DNA of 32,000 nucleotides from Candidatus Nanoarchaeia archaeon (GCA_028279745.1 JANQNC010000001.1:990001-1022000), one strand, 5' to 3'; positions 9,668-28,394 are shown, counted from the first letter of the stretch. Numbers and translations: made by a program. The notes: generated from the sequence alone by a model not told the origin.

Positions 9668-9835
9668 TCATAAAAATATACTTACGATCTTGTAAAACAT
9701 GAAAAATAAGACAGCAGCAACTAAGGAACCTAAAACAGTATCAGTAAAACTTGCATTAAGCCAGTAACCATAGCTTAGAAATAATGCAAGAACTAAGATG
9801 AACATAACTTTTCCAATTGCGCCTTTACTTTTCAT
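9668..9835 (-). CDS. 55-aa two-TM membrane peptide
   Basis: MKSKGAIGKVMFILVLALFLSYGYWLNASFTDTVLGSLVAAVLFFMFYKIVSIFL. Its stop TGA is part of the SD of the next gene. It is below the ORF-track length cutoff. Confidence 0.4.
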   Translation of the reverse strand: MKSKGAIGKVMFILVLALFLSYGYWLNASFTDTVLGSLVAAVLFFMFYKIVSIFL

Positions 9836-9871: not shown

Positions 9872-10258
9872 CTAATCAACCCAGTAAAACAGCTTAACAA
9901 CGGCAGGAGAATAATTTTCTATGTTACCCGATAGTATTAATGAATCGGTGTGAATCCTTTTTTCAGGAAGATCTGTGGGGATGAAATTAACATCCTCATC
10001 AACTGCAACGATAAATGAACCCCTGTAAAGAGCAGGTAAGGAGTTGTTTATGAAAGACGTGGTGCAAGATTCATTGTTTTGTAATACGCAACCCCTAAAC
10101 TCTGAGTTAAACTCGAGATTAGAAAGAACATTTGGTTGAGGGATATCTTCCTGCGTGGCTAGTTGAGGTCTTGAAAATACAAAAACCAAGACACTTATTG
10201 TTAGAAGTATAGCAAAAGAAACTTCTAAAGTTCTCAAATAACCTTTTTTGTCTACCAT
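9872..10258 (-). CDS. archaeal type IV pilin-like protein (class III signal peptide)
   Basis: N-terminus MVDKKG/YLRTLEVSFAILLTISVLVFVF: a short basic leader, Gly, a Glu-containing start and a hydrophobic helix. It overlaps the upstream gene by 7 nt. Confidence 0.55.
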   Translation of the reverse strand: MVDKKGYLRTLEVSFAILLTISVLVFVFSRPQLATQEDIPQPNVLSNLEFNSEFRGCVLQNNESCTTSFINNSLPALYRGSFIVAVDEDVNFIPTDLPEKRIHTDSLILSGNIENYSPAVVKLFYWVD

Positions 10259-11481
10259 GTTCTGACAACCACCTCAACAGGGTGTAATATATTGAACTTA
10301 TCTAAAATAAAATCATTAAAAGTTGTGGCGTAAACATTAGCCAGATCATGCGGGGCTGATTGATTGTATGTATATATGGTGTTCTTCACAGTTGTATTTG
10401 TTATGGTGTTGTATGTTAAGTTTATTACATCAAAACTGAAATCATTTTCGTTAGGCAAGTTCCAGTTAGCCTTGATAGTTTCATAATCGGTTGTAGTTAG
10501 GTTGTTTAGTTTATCTAAAGAGAGCCCTTTATTTTCTATGGTGATGCCGAAATCATATCTGTTGGTGTAAGTTTCAATATCTTCATTTTCATGGGCAAAT
10601 ATTGAGTATGAGAAGTCAGAAACATCATTGAAAGAGAGTTCAACATCTAAAGAACTATTATCATAACAGAACGCAACATCTGCATTGGGGTTTAAGACTA
10701 GTGCAATATCATCATTTCCATCAAAATTAATGAAAGAAATATTATTTTTGGTTTCACAACCATCAACAAAAACAATATTTTCAGTTAAAGTGTTCCAGCT
10801 GTTAAAGTCTGAAGTAAGTTCCAGAGTAAATGAAAAATTAATGCTTTCAACATTTGTCTTGTCTGAGTTAACGTAACAGTACGTCCTTGAAAAATCATCA
10901 ACTAAGAAGCAAGAGTGATTAATTATGGAACTACTTGCCTTAAAGTTAGCCAATAAGCTGTCTTCGTAAAATGAAAATTCATTTGCGCCAAAATCATCAA
11001 AGCTGAAATCAGTTATTAATTGGTTGTTTTCATATTCTAAATCGTCTGGCATGAAGTTGTTGAATCCAACATCAAGTTTGGAGTTTGTGAAAGAGTTATT
11101 ATCTGCAGTGAAATCTTTTGTTAGGAAAGGTTTAGAGTAGTTCTTGCTTGAGTAGATTAAGTTTATGTAAGAAGAGTTTTCATTAATGAAAAATATTTTG
11201 TTATCTAAATATGAATGATACTTGGCTGTATAAAAATCAGAATAGTTGAATGGCAAGTTTGCAATAATTAAACTGTCATTGGTGTTAATAAACAAAGGGG
11301 CATTGTATACACTCCAACTTGCATCTTCAACAACGCCTTCTGCGACAAGAGCAGGAAATGAATCAGTGTGGGTTACTGGTTCAAGTCTTGGTCTCAAAAA
11401 CATAAAGAAAATCATCAGATAAACTAGAAAGATAGCTAGACTAATAACCCAATCTACTTGTGTACCTCCTTTTTTATTCAT
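10252..11481 (-). CDS. large Asn-rich surface protein with pilin-like N-terminus
   Basis: 409-aa ORF. The N-terminus MNKKGG/TQVDWVISLAIFLVYLMIFFMF is pilin-like; the rest is rich in N/S/T/D/F with many N-x-S/T sequons. Confidence 0.6.
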   Translation of the reverse strand: MNKKGGTQVDWVISLAIFLVYLMIFFMFLRPRLEPVTHTDSFPALVAEGVVEDASWSVYNAPLFINTNDSLIIANLPFNYSDFYTAKYHSYLDNKIFFINENSSYINLIYSSKNYSKPFLTKDFTADNNSFTNSKLDVGFNNFMPDDLEYENNQLITDFSFDDFGANEFSFYEDSLLANFKASSSIINHSCFLVDDFSRTYCYVNSDKTNVESINFSFTLELTSDFNSWNTLTENIVFVDGCETKNNISFINFDGNDDIALVLNPNADVAFCYDNSSLDVELSFNDVSDFSYSIFAHENEDIETYTNRYDFGITIENKGLSLDKLNNLTTTDYETIKANWNLPNENDFSFDVINLTYNTITNTTVKNTIYTYNQSAPHDLANVYATTFNDFILDKFNILHPVEVVVRTW

Positions 11482-13113: not shown

Positions 13114-13207
13114 CCCCTGAATTTTTAAAAAAGTAGCTCATAGGAAGTATTTAAATGTTATCAAAAACATTAGGTTTATATAGTATAAAATATCATGAAG
13201 TATAAAC

Positions 13208-13306
13208 ATATTTATGAGGTGATATTATATGAAGAAAATAGCTTTGATGACAACAGCATTAGCAACAGTTAGTATTGCATCAGCACAGTACGGCGGAATT
13301 CCTGAA
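13208..13306 (+). repeat. tandem duplication, copy 1 (99 bp; partner 13525-13623, 1 mismatch)
   Basis: The repeat runs from atatttatgaggtgatattatATG to ggaattcctgaa and covers SD, start, signal peptide, QYGG and IPE. The copies are offset by 317 bp. Confidence 0.9.
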
Positions 13307-13387
13307 ATAGGAAGTAGTGTTTTACCAGTTATAGGGTTGGTGGCAGTTGTTGCGGTGGCAGGATTTTTCTTAATGAAGAAAAAGTAA
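13229..13387 (+). CDS. mini-precursor: signal peptide + QYGG + IPE/TM/KKK tail (52 aa)
   Basis: MKKIALMTTALATVSIASA/QYGGIPEIGSSVLPVIGLVAVVAVAGFFLMKKK. SD gaggtga is upstream and an oligo-T tract follows the stop. Confidence 0.6.
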   Translation: MKKIALMTTALATVSIASAQYGGIPEIGSSVLPVIGLVAVVAVAGFFLMKKK

Positions 13388-13545
13388 TAGTATAATTTTT
13401 TTATATGCTTTTTTTTTATTTATTTTAGTATAGTTGTTACTTTGGTAATATAACTAGAAGTAACTTTCTCTAGTAACAAAAATCAAAACCTTTATATATG
13501 ATTATGCATCAAAAATGTATAATAATATTTATGAGGTGATATTAT

Positions 13546-13704
13546 ATGAAGAAAATAGCTTTGATGACAACAGCATTGGCAACAGTTAGTATTGCATCAG
13601 CACAGTACGGCGGAATTCCTGAAGTTGGCGGTAAAGTACTTCCAATCGTAGGTCTTGTAGCAGTTGTTGCTGTGGCAGGATTTTTCTTAATGAAAAAGAA
13701 CTAA
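13546..13704 (+). CDS. mini-precursor, second copy (52 aa)
   Basis: MKKIALMTTALATVSIASA/QYGGIPEVGGKVLPIVGLVAVVAVAGFFLMKKN has the same SD and an oligo-T tract after the stop. Confidence 0.6.
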   Translation: MKKIALMTTALATVSIASAQYGGIPEVGGKVLPIVGLVAVVAVAGFFLMKKN

Positions 13705-13758
13705 GGGTTTAATTTTTTTATTTCCCAACTTTTTTTATTCTCTAATCTTTTTTTTAGT

Positions 13759-14331
13759 TTATCTGCTTTTTAGCTTCAGGAACAGCCCTTTGAACACATT
13801 AAATCTAGAAGTCTTTTTCTTGTAATCTGAATATTTTTTACCGAAACGTATAGTAAGCTCTTTCTCTTCAGAGAAGGTTAAGATTATGAATAGTATAGAG
13901 ATAATTCCCGCTTCAACTATTGCAAAAAAAGACCAGAAACATATGGCTAAACCAACAAGGATGAAAGAAGTGCCAACATATATAGGATGTCGTACGTAGC
14001 TGTATATTTTGGTGTTAACTACCTTTTCCAATGGGACTAATATGCCTGTCTTTATCACAAACAGTGCATCTAGCATAATAAATACGCCTATGAAGAAAAC
14101 AACTAAGCCCCCTGCAACTATTAAGAGATCTGTTTTAATCATATCTCTTGAAGCCAGCCATAAGAAGAAAACATAACAAGTCATAACCAATAATGTTTGG
14201 AACCAAGCTATTAGCATCTGGATAATGCTTGAAGATCTTGGTTTAAACCAGTATATTATGGGGAAAATGATTCCTAAAACTATAAGAAAGTAAATTGATA
14301 CTACAACTAGATATCCTGGGTTTGCAATCAT
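13759..14331 (-). CDS. ICMT/PEMT-family membrane methyltransferase
   Basis: 190-aa polytopic ORF. YSYVRHPIYVG...EEKELTIRFGKKYSDYKKKT matches the RHPxY..G / EE..L...FG..Y..Y signature of isoprenylcysteine carboxyl methyltransferase-like proteins. Confidence 0.75.
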   Translation of the reverse strand: MIANPGYLVVVSIYFLIVLGIIFPIIYWFKPRSSSIIQMLIAWFQTLLVMTCYVFFLWLASRDMIKTDLLIVAGGLVVFFIGVFIMLDALFVIKTGILVPLEKVVNTKIYSYVRHPIYVGTSFILVGLAICFWSFFAIVEAGIISILFIILTFSEEKELTIRFGKKYSDYKKKTSRFNVFKGLFLKLKSR

Positions 14332-15855: not shown

Positions 15856-17550
15856 CTACTTTGTAGCAGGGCAGTAAAGAACATTTTTTAGGTTATCTCT
15901 AGGAAAATATCTTTTTATCTTTTCATCTGTATCTTCAAATATTATGCAATTATTTTTTAACATGACTCGTTTTGTTCTATCTGCAGAATGATCATATATT
16001 TCTGCATAACCTTCATCGGTGGTTATTGGAAGTTTTGGGATTGGTTGTATCAATCCATTGTTAGTTGTGTATACTGTTGTTCCGTCAACTTCAACATCTC
16101 CATTCTTTTTGAAATGAATGTTGTTGTAAAGTTTCCCTCTTTTTAGCTCCATCTGTTCAGAGCCATCGACGTTTATTGCAAATAATCTATCTTGGGCTGC
16201 ATTTGAGAAAATGATCCTTCCTTTTGAAAGGTAAAGATTTTCTTCAGCTATGTCTTTTGTGTTTGTAAGTCTTTTTAGCAAAGAACCATTGGCTCTCATT
16301 GAGTAAATTTCCCTTTTGGCAGGATTTTGATTTGTGAAGAAGATCATTCCTTTGTCGCTTGTTATAACTTCCCTTACATTTATGTCTTTGTTTATTTTTA
16401 TGGCTTTCTTTCCTTCCAAATCCATGGAATATAGATCTCTTTTTTGTTGATAAACAATTTTTTCAGATAAAGGTAAGTGGTCTTTAGCATAATGGCCTGC
16501 GAGCAGTGCAAGAGGAACAGCAATTAATGTTATGAGTGACCTTTTTTTCATACGCGGTTTACTTCTTACTCTGTATAATAGATCATCTCGAACATGTTCT
16601 ATGCAGGAATATCTTGATTTGGGGTCTTTGTTCAAGCACTTTGTGATTATGTAATCAAGTGCACGGCTAATATTGGGATTTATCTTTCTTGGAGAAACAA
16701 TCTCTTTCTTGAAATTAGTCACAATCTTTCTTAAATCTTCTCTTTGATGATCTCTTTTTTTGAAATGTGAATAAAAAGGATATTGGGTTGTGAAGCATCT
16801 GTACATCAATATGCCAAACGCCCAGACAGCAGAGCTTTCAGTAAAAGTGTTATCGATGAATTCTTCAGGGGGCCTGAATAGCAATGAAGATCTGTTGCTT
16901 TGGAAACTAATTGAATGTGTGGAGGAGAAATCAAGAATCTTGACACCTGTACTCTCACTTTCTTCATAAAGAATTATATTTCCTGGGTTTGGATCGTTGT
17001 GGCGAACTTTGGATTTCGCGGCGATAGTTAAGCCGTTTGCAATTTTAGTTACTATGTCTAGCATACCCCTAATTTTTATGTTTTCTGATTGTTTTTTGAT
17101 CATCTTTCTTAGAGCGTTGTCTTTAACTATCTCCCTGGGATCAAATAAATATCTTGCTCTCAAATGTTCTTCAAGAAGTTTTTTTAGGGTAAGTCTGCTG
17201 TCTACATACTCGCTGGAGAAATAGTGGTGATCTGTCTCTTTATCTTGGCCTTTGTCATAAACTTGAAAGAAGTACTTTAGATTTTCTGGGTGGAGTCTGT
17301 TATCTTCCATAATCCTTGCAATGATGTTTGGCTCTTGAAGAAAGAGTTCTAAAGGGGATTCAGAAGATTGTGATCTCATAGAATCATCTGTTTCTTGTTT
17401 TAGGATATTTAATGCGACTTCTCTATTAAGTTCTTGGTCTAAAGCAAGGAAAACTTTTTTCCATGCGCCTTCCCCAAGTTTCTCTTTAAGCACGTATCTA
17501 TTGTCGAAAACTTGATTTGTTTTAAACGCTAAATCTTCAACTACCATCAC
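15856..17550 (-). CDS. receptor-like Ser/Thr protein kinase: kinase domain, one TM, beta-propeller-like ectodomain
   Basis: 564-aa ORF. Gly-loop LGEGAWKKV, catalytic loop HNDPNPGN, DFS for DFG, and CLNKDPKSRYS. TM segment LITLIAVPLALLAGHY. The C-terminus has repeated DLYSMDLEGKK / EIYSMRANGS / RLFAINVDGSE, resembling TolB/PD40 blades. Confidence 0.8.
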   Translation of the reverse strand: MMVVEDLAFKTNQVFDNRYVLKEKLGEGAWKKVFLALDQELNREVALNILKQETDDSMRSQSSESPLELFLQEPNIIARIMEDNRLHPENLKYFFQVYDKGQDKETDHHYFSSEYVDSRLTLKKLLEEHLRARYLFDPREIVKDNALRKMIKKQSENIKIRGMLDIVTKIANGLTIAAKSKVRHNDPNPGNIILYEESESTGVKILDFSSTHSISFQSNRSSLLFRPPEEFIDNTFTESSAVWAFGILMYRCFTTQYPFYSHFKKRDHQREDLRKIVTNFKKEIVSPRKINPNISRALDYIITKCLNKDPKSRYSCIEHVRDDLLYRVRSKPRMKKRSLITLIAVPLALLAGHYAKDHLPLSEKIVYQQKRDLYSMDLEGKKAIKINKDINVREVITSDKGMIFFTNQNPAKREIYSMRANGSLLKRLTNTKDIAEENLYLSKGRIIFSNAAQDRLFAINVDGSEQMELKRGKLYNNIHFKKNGDVEVDGTTVYTTNNGLIQPIPKLPITTDEGYAEIYDHSADRTKRVMLKNNCIIFEDTDEKIKRYFPRDNLKNVLYCPATK

Positions 17551-19277: not shown

Positions 19278-19297
19278 AACTATTGGGGGTGGTTATT

Positions 19298-20002
19298 ATG
19301 AACATAAAGAAAGGATTAGTTGGATTAGTTTTAGGGATGAGTACAATGTTAATGCCTTTGAAAGCAGATATGCCGAACAAAACAGTGACAAGATATGTTG
19401 CACACATACAAAATTACATCGAAGACAAAGGCTATAAAGTTAGTGTGGAAGGAACAGATGGAAAAAAAGATTACACAATAGCAATAGATGACACTTTAAG
19501 AAACGAAAACTGTGAGCTGGAACCAAAAATAAGTCTTTACCCAACATCAGAGGGTGTTCCAATGAAAAGATGGATATTGTTTTATGATAAAGAGAACAAA
19601 GAAGATTTTGATTTTATTGAGGGAGTTAGCAAATTAAATTATGAAATGCTTGGAGTGGAGAGTGATATTGTAAAAACACTGGATAAATATTTTGATAAGA
19701 GTGTTGGATGTGAGACTGGCGTTAAGGAGAGAGATCTTAGTCTGAATGTGAATCCCAATCCGTTTAACTCAGAAGTGCAAGTTAACTATAAGTTAGATAG
19801 GGAGACAGATGTCAAAGTGAATGTTTATGACATCAAAGGGAACTTAGTTAGAAGGCTGACTAGGGGCAGGAAAGAGAAAGGAAAGCACTCCTTGAGATGG
19901 AACGCAACTGTAAATGGAACTGGTTTAGCATCTGGAAAATACTTTGTGGAAATGGTTGCAGATGGAAAAAGATTTGTGAGGGGGATAAATTATTTGAGAT
20001 GA
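19298..20002 (+). CDS. secreted protein with FlgD-Ig-like / T9SS-type C-terminal beta-sandwich domain
   Basis: Signal peptide MNIKKGLVGLVLGMSTMLMPLKA. The C-terminus NPNPFNSEVQVNYKL...VNVYDIKGNLVRRL...GKHSLRWNA..NGTGLASGKYFVEM matches the FlgD_ig / Por C-terminal pattern. ATG 19298 is preferred over the TTG at 19283. Confidence 0.7.
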   Translation: MNIKKGLVGLVLGMSTMLMPLKADMPNKTVTRYVAHIQNYIEDKGYKVSVEGTDGKKDYTIAIDDTLRNENCELEPKISLYPTSEGVPMKRWILFYDKENKEDFDFIEGVSKLNYEMLGVESDIVKTLDKYFDKSVGCETGVKERDLSLNVNPNPFNSEVQVNYKLDRETDVKVNVYDIKGNLVRRLTRGRKEKGKHSLRWNATVNGTGLASGKYFVEMVADGKRFVRGINYLR

Positions 20003-20009
20003 GAACAAA

Positions 20010-20080
20010 TGCGCCAACGGGGAATCGAACCCCGGCCACAACGTTGGCAACGTCGTATTGTACCACTCAACCATTGGCGC
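20010..20080 (-). tRNA. tRNA-Gly (GCC)
   Basis: Full cloverleaf by hand: GCGCCAA/TTGGCGC acceptor, GTTG/CAAT D-stem, CGACG-TTGCCAA-CGTTG anticodon arm, CGGGG-TTCGATT-CCCCG T-arm, discriminator A. No CCA is encoded. Confidence 0.9.
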
Positions 20081-20184: not shown

Positions 20185-20299
20185 TGGGCCCACCCGGACT
20201 CGAACCGGGGACCTTCTCCTCTCTCAGCAACAAGTTGCTGGATACCCAAGCAAGCTTGTGCATGTAAGGGAGACATTATAGCCACTAAACTATGGGCCC
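20185..20299 (-). tRNA. tRNA-Val (UAC) with a 42-nt canonical intron
   Basis: GGGCCCA/TGGGCCC acceptor, anticodon arm TCTCC-CTTACA|intron|A-GGAGA, T-arm CCCGG-TTCGAGT-CCGGG. The intron is 20221-20262 (37/38 position). The BHB has a 4-bp helix CTTA/TGAG flanked by 3-nt bulges CAT and AGA. Confidence 0.85.
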
Positions 20300-25684: not shown

Positions 25685-27466
25685 ATGATGAAGATATTTT
25701 TGATATTGGTTGCTTTGTTTGCTATAAGCTTTGCTTGTGCTCAAACAACTTATTATGTTGATGATGATGGAGTTTGTGGAGGAAATATTCCTTGTTCTAC
25801 AACAATAGCAGGAGGGTTGGCTTCAGCAGTATCAGGTGATACTGTTTATGTTTATGATGGCAGTTATACTGAAAATCCAACTGTAAATGCAGGAATTAAT
25901 CTGTCTGGTGAAAGTAACACTGGAACTGTTGTAAGCGGGACAATTACTATTTATGCTAATACTGTTGTAAACAATTTGAAAATTACAGGAAGTGGAAAAG
26001 GTATAAACGTTCCTGCAGGAAATTATGATAATCAAGTAATATCTAATAATCTATTAGTTCAAAACATTGGTAATGCGATAGAAACAGGCTCAGATAGTGG
26101 AACAAACATGCGTGTTTCAAATAATTTAATATCAGACAATGCGGGGTCGGGGTTTCGTGCTAGTTTTGATCCTGGAACAATTTATTTTGAACATAACACT
26201 ATTGTAAATAATAGCGATGGTGTTGTGATAGGAAGAAGGAGTAACTTTTGGCTTACTGATAACATTATAGCTTTTAATAGGAATTATGCTTTTGCTAATT
26301 CAGGGGGTCATAATCAAGTTTGTAATTTTTATAATAATCATAGTTTGATTTATGCTAACAGAGAGGGTTTGTTACGGCCAAATTCTTCTACTCGTTATTC
26401 TGTTTTTTATGATGTCGAAGGCGGTGTTTACTCCCAGCCTCGGTTTGTAGATTCTTATAATGGGGATTATAGAATAGATTGTGGAAGTCCTGCTGCAAGT
26501 GCTGCAACTGATGGCACAAATATTGGTGTTTATCAAGGATGTGTTAACACAGGAAATTATTATGGGCCTTTCTATGTTGCAAAAACGGGAGATGATTCAA
26601 CAGGGGATGGTTCACCCTCAACTCCTTACTTGACAATCCAGAGAGGTATTGACCAAGCTCTTTATTTTGATGAAGTCATTGTAAAACCAGGAACTTATAC
26701 GGAGAATCCTGTTGTTGATCAGACAGTGGCTTTGACTGGAGCAGGTAATAGTGATTCAATCGTGAGCGGAACGATCACCATGTCTCATGATACAAATCTG
26801 ACTGGTTTTAAGGTTACAGGTAATGGTCAAGGTCTTTACTTTACTGGAGATCGACAATTCGTTGAAGATTGTAGGATTGAGAGTAATACGGGTGCAGGAA
26901 TTGCAACTGCTTCTGACGCAGGAACTCATGCGGTAATCTCAAGAACGCTGATAGCAAATAATGGGGGTCATGCTGTAGATTTTAGTTTTGATGTGTCAGA
27001 TGATATCTACTTTACTCATGTAACTATTGTGGGCAACTCAGGAAATGTGTTTGACATTATACGTAGAATAAGCATAAAATTAACTGATAGCATAGTCGCA
27101 AATAATGGAGGTTATCTAATTGGCGGAAGTTTAGATTACAGGCCGCCTGGCGCGTTACCTTTTGAAATAATAGTTAACAATAGCTTGATTTATGAGGATC
27201 CTATTAAGGCGGATAGTAGAATAGAGTATATTGAAGTTGAAGGAGTCATAAATGATTCAGATCCTCTATTCTTAGTTGGTTCAGTAGATTATGAACTTCA
27301 AGCAAGTTCACCGGCACAACAAGCAGCTTCAGACGGAACAGACATGGGTTGGATAGAAAGTTTAAGTGATCAAGGTGGAGATGATATACCTGAAATGTCA
27401 CAAACTATAGTGTTAATCATTGCACTTGTTGTAATAATGTCAATGGCATTCATGAAAAAACGCTAG
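25685..27466 (+). CDS. secreted right-handed beta-helix (PbH1/NosD-like) protein with IPE-type C-terminal anchor signal
   Basis: Signal peptide MMKIFLILVALFAISFACA. Two homologous halves carry N.I..N / G..I repeats. The C-terminus is GGDDIPEMSQTIVLIIALVVIMSMAFMKKR. Confidence 0.8.
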   Translation: MMKIFLILVALFAISFACAQTTYYVDDDGVCGGNIPCSTTIAGGLASAVSGDTVYVYDGSYTENPTVNAGINLSGESNTGTVVSGTITIYANTVVNNLKITGSGKGINVPAGNYDNQVISNNLLVQNIGNAIETGSDSGTNMRVSNNLISDNAGSGFRASFDPGTIYFEHNTIVNNSDGVVIGRRSNFWLTDNIIAFNRNYAFANSGGHNQVCNFYNNHSLIYANREGLLRPNSSTRYSVFYDVEGGVYSQPRFVDSYNGDYRIDCGSPAASAATDGTNIGVYQGCVNTGNYYGPFYVAKTGDDSTGDGSPSTPYLTIQRGIDQALYFDEVIVKPGTYTENPVVDQTVALTGAGNSDSIVSGTITMSHDTNLTGFKVTGNGQGLYFTGDRQFVEDCRIESNTGAGIATASDAGTHAVISRTLIANNGGHAVDFSFDVSDDIYFTHVTIVGNSGNVFDIIRRISIKLTDSIVANNGGYLIGGSLDYRPPGALPFEIIVNNSLIYEDPIKADSRIEYIEVEGVINDSDPLFLVGSVDYELQASSPAQQAASDGTDMGWIESLSDQGGDDIPEMSQTIVLIIALVVIMSMAFMKKR

Positions 27467-27530: not shown

Positions 27531-28394
27531 ATGAAAAAAATAATATTTTTTTTAATGGTTTTATTTGCAGTTGGAGTAGTTAGCGCAGCAAACTATCCAG
27601 CATGTAATAATCCAATAGATAATGCGCCATGTGTTATAATGGGGGAGTCTAATGTGGTCTATACTCTTGAGGATCAGGTAGTTGTTGACGCAGGAGACTA
27701 TGATGGATCAAAACAAGATCCTGATACAGTCATATTTATTTCAGGTTCAAACAATATAGAACTAGACTGTAAAGGTTATTCCATCTCAACAACAACAGAC
27801 AGTTTTAGAATAGGGGTTCACGTTTTTGATTCACATGCGATTAACGTTACAAACTGTGAGATATACGATTTTTTATCAGCCCCCCCTTCTGCAGGGTTAG
27901 GTTTGTCTGTATTTAATAACCAAGAACATTTTATCACTGGAAACTTCATTCATGACAACAGGGTAGGTGTTGGAGGGCTTTTTAGTGCTGGGCCTTTTGC
28001 AAAGTTCGAAGAAAATATAATAGAAAATAATGAGGTTGGAATGGGGCCTGCTCATCCAGCATCTGACTTATATTTTGATGAGATGAATACACAAAACAAC
28101 TGTTTCGCAAATGAAATTAATGTAGACCCGTCTGGTTGTTATCCTCCAAGTTATCAATCAAACCCATCATGGGATGGAAACTATTGGCATGACTTATTCA
28201 GTCCAACATATCCTGTTTGTGGTGTTGATGGGTTTTCAAGAACAGATAACACACCTTCAAATTATCCCTGTCCTTTAACATTTGAAGGACCAGTTCTTCA
28301 ACCTGAAGGAGAGATTCCAGAGATAAACACATCAGCAGTGATTTTAATTATCGCTGTAGTTGCAATCGGTGCTGTGTTTGTTAAAAGGAAATAA
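27531..28394 (+). CDS. secreted beta-helix (NosD-like) protein with IPE-type C-terminal anchor signal
   Basis: Signal peptide MKKIIFFLMVLFAVGVVSA and SD gaggtg. Repeats such as NVTNCEIYD and GNFIHDNRVGVG are present. The C-terminus is PEGEIPEINTSAVILIIAVVAIGAVFVKRK. Confidence 0.8.
   Translation: MKKIIFFLMVLFAVGVVSAANYPACNNPIDNAPCVIMGESNVVYTLEDQVVVDAGDYDGSKQDPDTVIFISGSNNIELDCKGYSISTTTDSFRIGVHVFDSHAINVTNCEIYDFLSAPPSAGLGLSVFNNQEHFITGNFIHDNRVGVGGLFSAGPFAKFEENIIENNEVGMGPAHPASDLYFDEMNTQNNCFANEINVDPSGCYPPSYQSNPSWDGNYWHDLFSPTYPVCGVDGFSRTDNTPSNYPCPLTFEGPVLQPEGEIPEINTSAVILIIAVVAIGAVFVKRK

Follow-up and report, generated by a model that had tools for sequence, protein, structure and literature searches.

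The 32,000-nucleotide stretch analyzed here, and referred to as the window (JANQNC010000001.1:990001-1022000 of assembly GCA_028279745.1, Candidatus Nanoarchaeia archaeon), contains a tandem pair of mini-genes, each of which encodes a precursor of 52 amino acids (aa) consisting of an export signal joined to a C-terminal tail. We consider, at a probability of roughly one in two, that these mini-genes specify functional, cargo-less substrates of a lineage-specific sorting pathway that would resemble the PEF-CTERM system and be marked by the motif Ile-Pro-Glu (IPE), with both the processing and the function of the products being deduced from the sequence. According to the placement of its Kae1 protein, for which the best species-representative match had 68% identity, the host is a member of the Woesearchaeota, within the DPANN archaea. 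The two mini-genes are listed below, with their scores against the profile of the five tails described further on.

13229-13387, + strand: mini-gene 1, 52 aa, reading MKKIALMTTALATVSIASA / QYGG / IPE IGSS VLPVIGLVAVVAVAGFFLM KKK; five-tail profile, 70 bits
13546-13704, + strand: mini-gene 2, 52 aa, reading MKKIALMTTALATVSIASA / QYGG / IPE VGGK VLPIVGLVAVVAVAGFFLM KKN; five-tail profile, 65 bits

Each mini-protein starts with a 19-residue Sec-type signal peptide ending in A-S-A, whose hydrophobic core scores below the level of a transmembrane (TM) helix, and continues with QYGG and then with a 29-residue sorting unit, which unit comprises the IPE, a polar spacer of 4-5 residues, approximately 19 hydrophobic residues, and the cluster KKK or KKN placed right at the stop codon. 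A first-pass annotation of the DNA had described two 52-aa genes lying 317 bp apart and sharing a 99-bp block with one mismatch; and we recovered every element of that description, including the ATG-to-ATG distance of 317 bp, while no open reading frame (ORF) of at least 30 aa in another frame overlapped either mini-gene. The same neighborhood was present in the independently made Logan assembly of run SRR20820740, where the 3' part of mini-gene 2 was found again in contig L001 and where the contig breaks within copy 2, as tandem repeats cause such breaks.

Evidence for our proposal comes from three larger secreted proteins of the same organism, which end in a tail of the same layout—the IPE, a spacer of 4-5 residues, a TM helix, and a cluster of Lys and Arg. 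These full-size carriers are:

25685-27466, + strand: secreted beta-helix protein of 593 aa, tail ...GGDDIPEMSQTIVLIIALVVIMSMAFMKKR; matched by the five-tail profile
27531-28394, + strand: secreted beta-helix protein of 287 aa, tail ...PEGEIPEINTSAVILIIAVVAIGAVFVKRK
Contig L083, 2132-2722, outside the window: P0004, 196 aa, signal peptide MKKTILMVFVLFAVGIASA (...GIASA, 19 aa), C terminus ...GGNGGAYGGIPEIGNNILSIIGLIVVIAVAGFFIMKKK

The tail of P0004 (...AYGGIPEIGNNILSIIGLIVVIAVAGFFIMKKK, ending in ...AYGGIPEIG..AVAGFFIMKKK) follows a Cys-rich passenger domain, some 140 residues long and containing 10 or more Cys, which domain had no match in Pfam or NCBIfam, and the gene itself is located among ribosomal and RNA-modification genes (Nop10, eIF2-alpha, S27e, Cbf5). 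Since P0004 belongs to the same 1,301,350-bp contig as the window, at least five tail carriers exist in one genome: two beta-helix proteins, one Cys-rich protein, and two proteins without a passenger. All five possess, as called by inspection of the sequences, a 19-residue signal with n, h, and c regions ending in [AS]-x-A (ASA|Q, ACA|Q, VSA|A, ASA|N), so that the signal peptide of the mini-proteins equals those of the three larger carriers in both its length and its small-x-A end. Alignment of the five tails showed the I-P-E to be invariant, as are a Phe close to where the TM segment ends and the Lys that opens the basic cluster, while the spacer and most of the TM residues vary. In the DNA of this organism that we examined, comprising the window and the contigs, only these five ORFs matched the tail, and all four of those in the window carry the IPE.

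Judged from these alignments, the tail is a genuine recurrent signal and not a chance transmembrane segment, and the first-pass annotation's description of it as a C-terminal tripartite signal of the sorting type is thus strengthened by three larger secreted carriers in which the I-P-E is invariant. Furthermore, because only the IPE, the hydrophobicity, and the basic cluster are conserved across three unrelated domains, the tail would constitute a recognition signal rather than the site of a specific TM interaction. The same annotation had proposed QYGG or QYGGIPE as the residual product of processing; but since P0004 displays AYGGIPEIG where the mini-proteins display QYGGIPEIG, the YGG would be part of the linker or tail module, and QYGG is probably not a distinct cargo. 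By their sequence layout, then, the mini-proteins combine the signal peptide of a P0004-type gene directly with its tail module.

That same comparison also feeds the best-surviving alternative, namely that the products are plain small membrane peptides in which the C-terminal helix stays as an anchor, the signal peptide is either removed or kept (in the latter instance giving a two-helix hairpin), and the IPE was merely inherited, with the peptide itself being functional, for example by belonging to a membrane complex or modulating one. Both copies and P0004 agree well in the TM core IGL..V.AVAGFF.MKK, the topology obeys the positive-inside rule (MKK... and ...KKK), no sorting enzyme was found in the window, and a product of 4-7 residues would be functionally meager. 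Nevertheless, the likeness of the TM core to P0004 may be explained by recent shared ancestry or by conversion, inasmuch as 20 nt spanning YGGIPE are identical; and a plain anchor does not account for a tail that is mounted on three unrelated secreted domains and is conserved only in its IPE, its hydrophobicity, and its basic cluster. We therefore regard this explanation as rather unlikely, while taking it more seriously than those that follow.

Both copies of the mini-gene are furnished with the elements expected for expression, as read from the sequence, and share a homogenized block:

13175-13182, + strand: TATA-box-like element TTTATATA of mini-gene 1, 54 nt upstream of the ATG
13491-13498, + strand: TATA-box-like element TTTATATA of mini-gene 2, 55 nt upstream of the ATG
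13216-13223, + strand: Shine-Dalgarno sequence GAGGTGAT of mini-gene 1, a perfect 8 nt, 5 nt before the ATG
13533-13540, + strand: Shine-Dalgarno sequence GAGGTGAT of mini-gene 2, a perfect 8 nt, 5 nt before the ATG
13396-13418, + strand: T-runs (T7 and T9) after mini-gene 1, a putative archaeal oligo-T terminator
13712-13754, + strand: T-runs after mini-gene 2, within the 54 nt that separate it from the convergent ICMT-like gene
13208-13306, + strand: 99-bp homogenized block, copy 1, with the leader and its Shine-Dalgarno sequence, the start codon, the signal peptide, QYGG, and IPE
13525-13623, + strand: 99-bp homogenized block, copy 2, with one mismatch against copy 1

The TATA-like element was kept in both copies while the flanking upstream DNA diverged, and we read the T-runs as terminators because the archaeal RNA polymerase is known to terminate at oligo-T. 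The 8-mer GAGGTGAT also precedes the 593-aa gene and that of P0004, so that a leadered layout with a strong Shine-Dalgarno sequence is common to those two genes and the mini-genes. The 287-aa gene has a shorter sequence, GAGGTG, and gave no TATA match in the upstream survey; with that exception, the genes with IPE tails combine a TATA element at -46 to -55 with GAGGTGAT. Six other genes of the window—with starts that include 2879, 5904, 11481 (-), 17550 (-), 18485 (-), and 20387—have a TATA-like match 27-32 nt upstream of the start codon and little or no Shine-Dalgarno sequence, a spacing of about 30 nt which suggests that they are leaderless and, together with the former layout, suggests two distinct classes of translation initiation in the window. 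Scans of the region for promoters and terminators of the bacterial type were uninformative.

The divergence between the copies is uneven beyond chance. The full duplicated unit spans about 244 nt at 82% identity, and the 99-bp block, which starts with the last 21 nt of the leader and hence includes GAGGTGAT, contains as its sole mismatch a synonymous TTA/TTG difference at position 13261; of the 21 coding differences, 16 fall within codons 27-38 and only 1 in the TM end (codons 39-49). Expressed as synonymous (pS) and nonsynonymous (pN) divergence, codons 1-26 had a pS of 0.05 and a pN of 0, codons 27-38 a saturated pS of 0.79 and a pN of 0.31, and codons 39-49 a pS of 0.12 and a pN of 0, with the middle segment differing from the first block at p = 8e-9 and from the 3' block at p = 6e-4 (Fisher test). 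The first-pass annotation had already stated that the copies diverge just after the IPE and re-converge at the TM end, and had suggested gene conversion from the patchy identity: the codon comparison agrees with the former statement, and the pattern of synonymous divergence lends support to the latter. In view of the saturation at synonymous sites in the unconverted codons 27-38, the duplication is old; and because pN there is 0.31 against a pS of 0.79, the frames are intact, and the replacements (I/V, V/I, S/G, S/K) are conservative as in I/V and S/G, the amino-acid sequence has been maintained. The simplest cause of the homogenization of both flanking segments would be gene conversion, the upstream tract of which would, on the simplest account, extend approximately from where transcription is predicted to begin as far as the final base of the Glu codon in the IPE.

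The 20 nt TACGGCGGAATTCCTGAAAT spanning YGGIPE are identical in both mini-genes and in P0004, and include C-ending codons that are unusual in this AT-rich genome. We also observed that the codons for G-I-P form a palindrome, GGAATTCC, containing an EcoRI site (13294-13301, 13611-13618, and about 2630-2637 of L083), and that the conversion tract of the mini-genes ends 5 nt downstream of that palindrome.

The search for relatives outside this genome returned very little. With the mini-protein as the query, the second copy was all that a word-indexed search of 5.8 billion proteins returned; no exact match was obtained from the assembly index; a back-translated pattern scan of the GTDB species genomes gave no mini-protein match; and a pattern scan of the JGI metagenomes found none with the whole mini-protein and none with the tail of the three closest carriers. 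An exhaustive search with a profile hidden Markov model (HMM) of 1.84 billion representative proteins yielded one true relative, P0004 (E = 2.9e-12); two other proteins there, P0003 (3420 aa) and P0005 (527 aa), were rejected as artefacts, their scores being the sum of weak matches over many internal repeats. The 287-aa carrier used as a query returned only itself, and both this protein and the 593-aa one are singletons. The five-tail profile, for its part, returned only the mini-protein in the protein search and was without a match in other archaeal DNA totaling about 1 Mb and including some 30 Woesearchaeota loci; while the 80 loci around Kae1 homologs (about 30 from Woesearchaeota, best identity 68%) shared no gene order with the window and contained no IPE tails. 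Related genomes carrying the mini-gene, for which the first-pass annotation had proposed to look, were accordingly not found in the collections searched.

The above results bear directly on the possibility that the mini-genes are evolutionary debris, a P0004-like gene having lost its passenger by deletion and the resulting stub having been tandemly duplicated, to be perhaps transcribed though functionless. The architecture of the mini-genes is indeed that of P0004 minus the mature domain, the searched collections contained no orthologs, and the surface-protein genes of DPANN archaea turn over quickly, as illustrated by the two larger singletons. Both copies, however, retain their frames, starts, Shine-Dalgarno sequences, TATA elements, and terminators despite the saturated pS in the middle segment, where the replacements are few relative to that value and conservative; and the fact that the 5' module stays intact and continues to be converted in a streamlined 1.3-Mb genome speaks against neutral decay, so that we consider this origin without function to be quite improbable.

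To which of the described families the signal belongs was approached with the curated models for PEF-CTERM (TIGR03024, cutoff 23 bits) and LPXTG_anchor (TIGR01167, cutoff 15.9 bits). The isolated tail of the 287-aa protein scored 25.3 bits on the former with the whole model aligned (positions 1-25), whereas replacing its IPE by AAA lowered the score to 18.5 bits and made the alignment begin at model position 6; from this loss of 6.8 bits and of model positions 1-5 we conclude that the IPE sits on the PEF signature. The 593-aa protein reached 21.8 bits with the isolated tail and 14.4 bits at full length. A single I-to-F change in the tail of the mini-protein (IPEI to IPEF) was sufficient for a PEF-CTERM match to appear, at 14.4 bits; and in the natural tails the P-E is invariant in five out of five, with the next residue being I, V, or M where PEF has F. 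These comparisons favor describing the signal as an "IPE" variant specific to this lineage, with PEF-CTERM as the closest of the described families. The two have in common an archaeal host, an N-terminal signal peptide, a tripartite unit of some 25-29 residues at the C terminus, opening with hydrophobic-P-E-hydrophobic and continuing with a TM helix and a basic cluster, and the presence of several paralogous carriers per genome, here with unrelated passengers. They differ in that the motif here is IPE, with I, V, or M as the next residue, and not PEF, in that two of the carriers lack a passenger domain, and in that the host is a DPANN Woesearchaeon while the PEF-CTERM system was described in methanogens, where it has been paired with archaeosortase C (ArtC; Haft, Payne and Selengut, 2012, as cited in PMC5244752 and PMC6098224).

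On the LPXTG_anchor model the scores were 19.3 bits for mini-protein 1 at full length and 21.5 for its tail alone, 14.3 and 16.3 bits, respectively, for mini-protein 2, and 23.0 bits for the tail of P0004, with the alignments covering only model positions 7-32, that is, the part after the motif. These values might suggest that an LPXTG-like signal (IPEIG or IPEVG) is cut by a sortase of the bacterial type, which enzyme would join the peptide to the wall or to a surface polymer: the tails of the mini-proteins and P0004 lie above the cutoff (at 16-23 bits, with mini-protein 2 doing so only as the tail alone), the tripartite layout is shared with the substrates of sortase A in Gram-positive bacteria, position 5 is a G in three of the five tails, and a polar spacer separates the motif from the TM segment. 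Such a short spacer is described as typical of LPXTG signals (bioRxiv 10.1101/2023.06.07.544157). In our control series, however, the wild-type tail of the mini-protein scored 21.3 bits, the tail with IPE changed to AAA 19.7—a drop of merely 1.6 bits—and the tail into which LPETG had been put 27.2, with the alignment in this last instance beginning at model position 2; and we take the natural match, in being nearly independent of the motif, as generic to a TM helix plus a basic tail. In sortase motifs Thr is close to invariant at position 4, which position is I, V, or M here, while position 5 is S or N in the two beta-helix proteins; the host is an archaeon; and the window contains no sortase domain (PF04203). 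An LPXTG-type signal is therefore very improbable.

Scarcely credible, finally, is a hydrophobic peptide resembling a toxin or bacteriocin, whether as an analog of the type-I toxins under the control of an antisense RNA spanning the conserved 5' block or as a precursor whose double-glycine leader (...QYGG) would free a cationic 29-mer: the conservation of the 5' 99 bp at the nucleotide level and the GG directly before the IPE, with a small, hydrophobic, and cationic sequence after it, would fit such a peptide, but the precursor begins with a classical Sec signal peptide that has an AXA site and not with a hydrophilic double-glycine leader, the GG-IPE-TM-KKK unit terminates three ordinary secreted proteins, the antisense promoter-like matches are at background (6 versus 3.8 expected), no Rfam element was found, and the window contains no transporter or immunity gene nearby.

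Returning to the proposal that the mini-proteins are cargo-less sorting substrates, we envisage the following sequence of events, which draws on two known systems. The M13 procoat consists of a signal peptide that is cleaved off, a very short loop outside the membrane, and a single TM helix whose C terminus is basic; and the mini-precursor, being likewise too short for co-translational targeting, would be expected to insert as a helical hairpin, with the MKK and KKK ends in the cytoplasm, before the cut by the signal peptidase. The analogy would cover the entry into the membrane only, in that the procoat matures to a structural coat protein and is without a sorting motif. Signal peptidase would then cleave after ASA to leave a 33-residue remainder with its N terminus outside and its C terminus inside, some 11 residues exposed, and the IPE at the membrane surface, while the new N-terminal Gln might cyclize to pyroglutamate. 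A hypothetical enzyme serving the larger IPE-tail proteins—most likely an intramembrane transpeptidase of the archaeosortase type—would cut at or next to the IPE. Two products would result, a TM remnant that is 26-29 residues long and a peptide that measures 4-7 residues and is probably pyroGlu-Tyr-Gly-Gly, with Ile-Pro-Glu either included or not; on the model of Haloferax ArtA, this short peptide would be passed on to a membrane lipid or else be set free. If the mini-proteins are processed as the larger carriers would be, almost no protein is left, because the export signal joins the sorting tail directly. The pair itself would have arisen by an old tandem duplication, with gene conversion keeping the leader, the signal peptide, and the motif region identical.

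The mechanism for this second stage is borrowed from the PGF-CTERM/archaeosortase A pair of Haloferax volcanii, the only experimentally studied archaeosortase system, where lipid attachment requires ArtA, the protein that removes the C-terminal helix (PMC6098224; bioRxiv 10.1101/2023.06.07.544157). The likeness resides in a Sec substrate that is held temporarily by a C-terminal TM helix, which helix is swapped for a covalent lipid; the differences, in the PGF motif and in known substrates that are large glycoproteins such as the S-layer protein. We did not meet a cargo-less substrate in the archaeosortase literature searched.

A narrower version of the proposal, which we hold to be unlikely, is that the mini-genes are dedicated precursors of a ribosomally encoded lipo-oligopeptide, with pyroGlu-Tyr-Gly-Gly(-Ile-Pro-Glu) covalently bound to a membrane lipid. 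If this were true, a host-dependent DPANN cell would possess a genetically encoded decoration of lipid head groups or a releasable signal peptide, with the TM remnant as a second product; and the mini-proteins would be the smallest natural substrates of any sortase-like system and a new route to surface lipopeptides.

In more general terms, the tripartite signals (LPXTG, PEP-CTERM, PGF-CTERM, PEF-CTERM) are known as tags that bring large surface proteins to an anchor, and the present case differs in the occurrence of such a tag in a DPANN archaeon and in two maintained genes made of the export signal and the tag only. Should the tag be processed, the mini-proteins would be natural minimal substrates, in which a 33-residue peptide holds everything that the sorting enzyme needs; this property would help to locate the cleavage site and to address whether the archaeosortases are one-step transpeptidases, a question open in the field, and would imply that these pathways may make short lipid-linked peptides as products in themselves. 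If, on the other hand, the tag is not processed, the pair would represent small anchor peptides derived from a surface-protein gene, and an example of modular turnover combined with gene conversion in the DPANN archaea.

Several points weigh against the cargo-less substrate that we favor. A product of 4-7 residues is without an obvious role. No ortholog of the mini-genes appeared in any of the collections searched, so that conservation rests on paralogs within one genome; and the gene conversion between those masks any signal of selection on the signal peptide, the QYGG, and the IPE. With respect to the family, the 287-aa protein at full length scored 19.6 bits on the PEF-CTERM model, under the cutoff, the mini-proteins and P0004 gave no match to that model at E <= 10, and short tripartite tails cross-match each other's models. 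Because of the failure in this formal HMM test, the mini-proteins should not be filed as PEF-CTERM members; and of the original description of the tail as PGF/PEF-CTERM-like there stands the identity of the nearest curated family, which is PEF-CTERM, but not a membership of the mini-proteins, which fall below its threshold.

The sorting enzyme is the other point. We looked for it in the 32-kb window, where every ORF of at least 100 aa was compared with Pfam and NCBIfam, and in three contigs—L001 and L082, which end inside the window, and L083, which carries P0004—out of a genome of 1.3 Mb. No archaeosortase, exosortase, sortase, rhomboid, or CPBP protease was present in the window or in L083, nor any archaeosortase on L001 or L082; an archaeosortase linked to the mini-genes, which the first-pass annotation had named as something to look for, is thus not encoded within these 32 kb. 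The 39 polytopic proteins taken from the retrieved loci as possible archaeosortase seeds proved on inspection to be transporters and the like, and the open literature that we searched contained no paper joining an archaeosortase with Woesearchaeota.

As to the surroundings, the window is archaeal and AT-rich (35% G+C), with genes that include an archaeal-type UMP kinase, Cdc6, a family B DNA polymerase, Kae1, and a tRNA with an intron. The mini-genes are flanked by a malic-enzyme gene (- strand) on one side and, on the other, by the convergent gene of a membrane protein:

13759-14331, - strand: membrane protein of the PEMT/ICMT superfamily, next gene after mini-gene 2 and convergent with it (Pfam PEMT 31.8 bits, ICMT 21.4 bits)

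This ICMT-like protein is the sole polytopic product of the window, according to the TM counts of all ORFs. We dropped a functional tie between it and the mini-genes, the tail being without Cys and the other three carriers not adjoining such a gene, in agreement with the earlier statement that a link of this kind was without evidence. An Rfam scan of the mini-gene region matched no RNA family or element.

Elsewhere in the window we noted a full-length RelA/SpoT-type protein of 641 aa (507-2432, -) with HD_4, RelA_SpoT, TGS, and ACT domains; to our knowledge such long enzymes are uncommon in archaea, and the gene may be a bacterial acquisition. A secreted protein of 239 aa (19283-20002, +) has a C-terminal FlgD Ig-like/Por_Secre_tail domain (Pfam, 46 and 37 bits; TIGR04183, 28.7 bits with a cutoff of 23), a sorting domain of the bacterial type IX secretion system here found in an archaeon, and is without an IPE tail. 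An overlapping pair of genes (9872-11481, -) encodes proteins of 409 and 128 aa whose N termini (MNKKGGTQVDWVISLAIFLVYL... and MVDKKGYLRTLEVSFAILLTISVL..., respectively) resemble type IV pilin or class III signal peptides and which had no match in Pfam or NCBIfam; directly downstream of this pair lies a 55-aa ORF with two TM segments (9668-9835). A eukaryote-like Ser/Thr protein kinase (15856-17550, -) combines one TM segment with a C-terminal region resembling a beta-propeller (DUF5050/Tricorn_N matches). Finally, a 115-nt tRNA (20185-20299, -), adjoining a tRNA-Gly(GCC) at 20010-20080, was found by Rfam at 55 bits and was not called by ARAGORN, presumably because of its intron.

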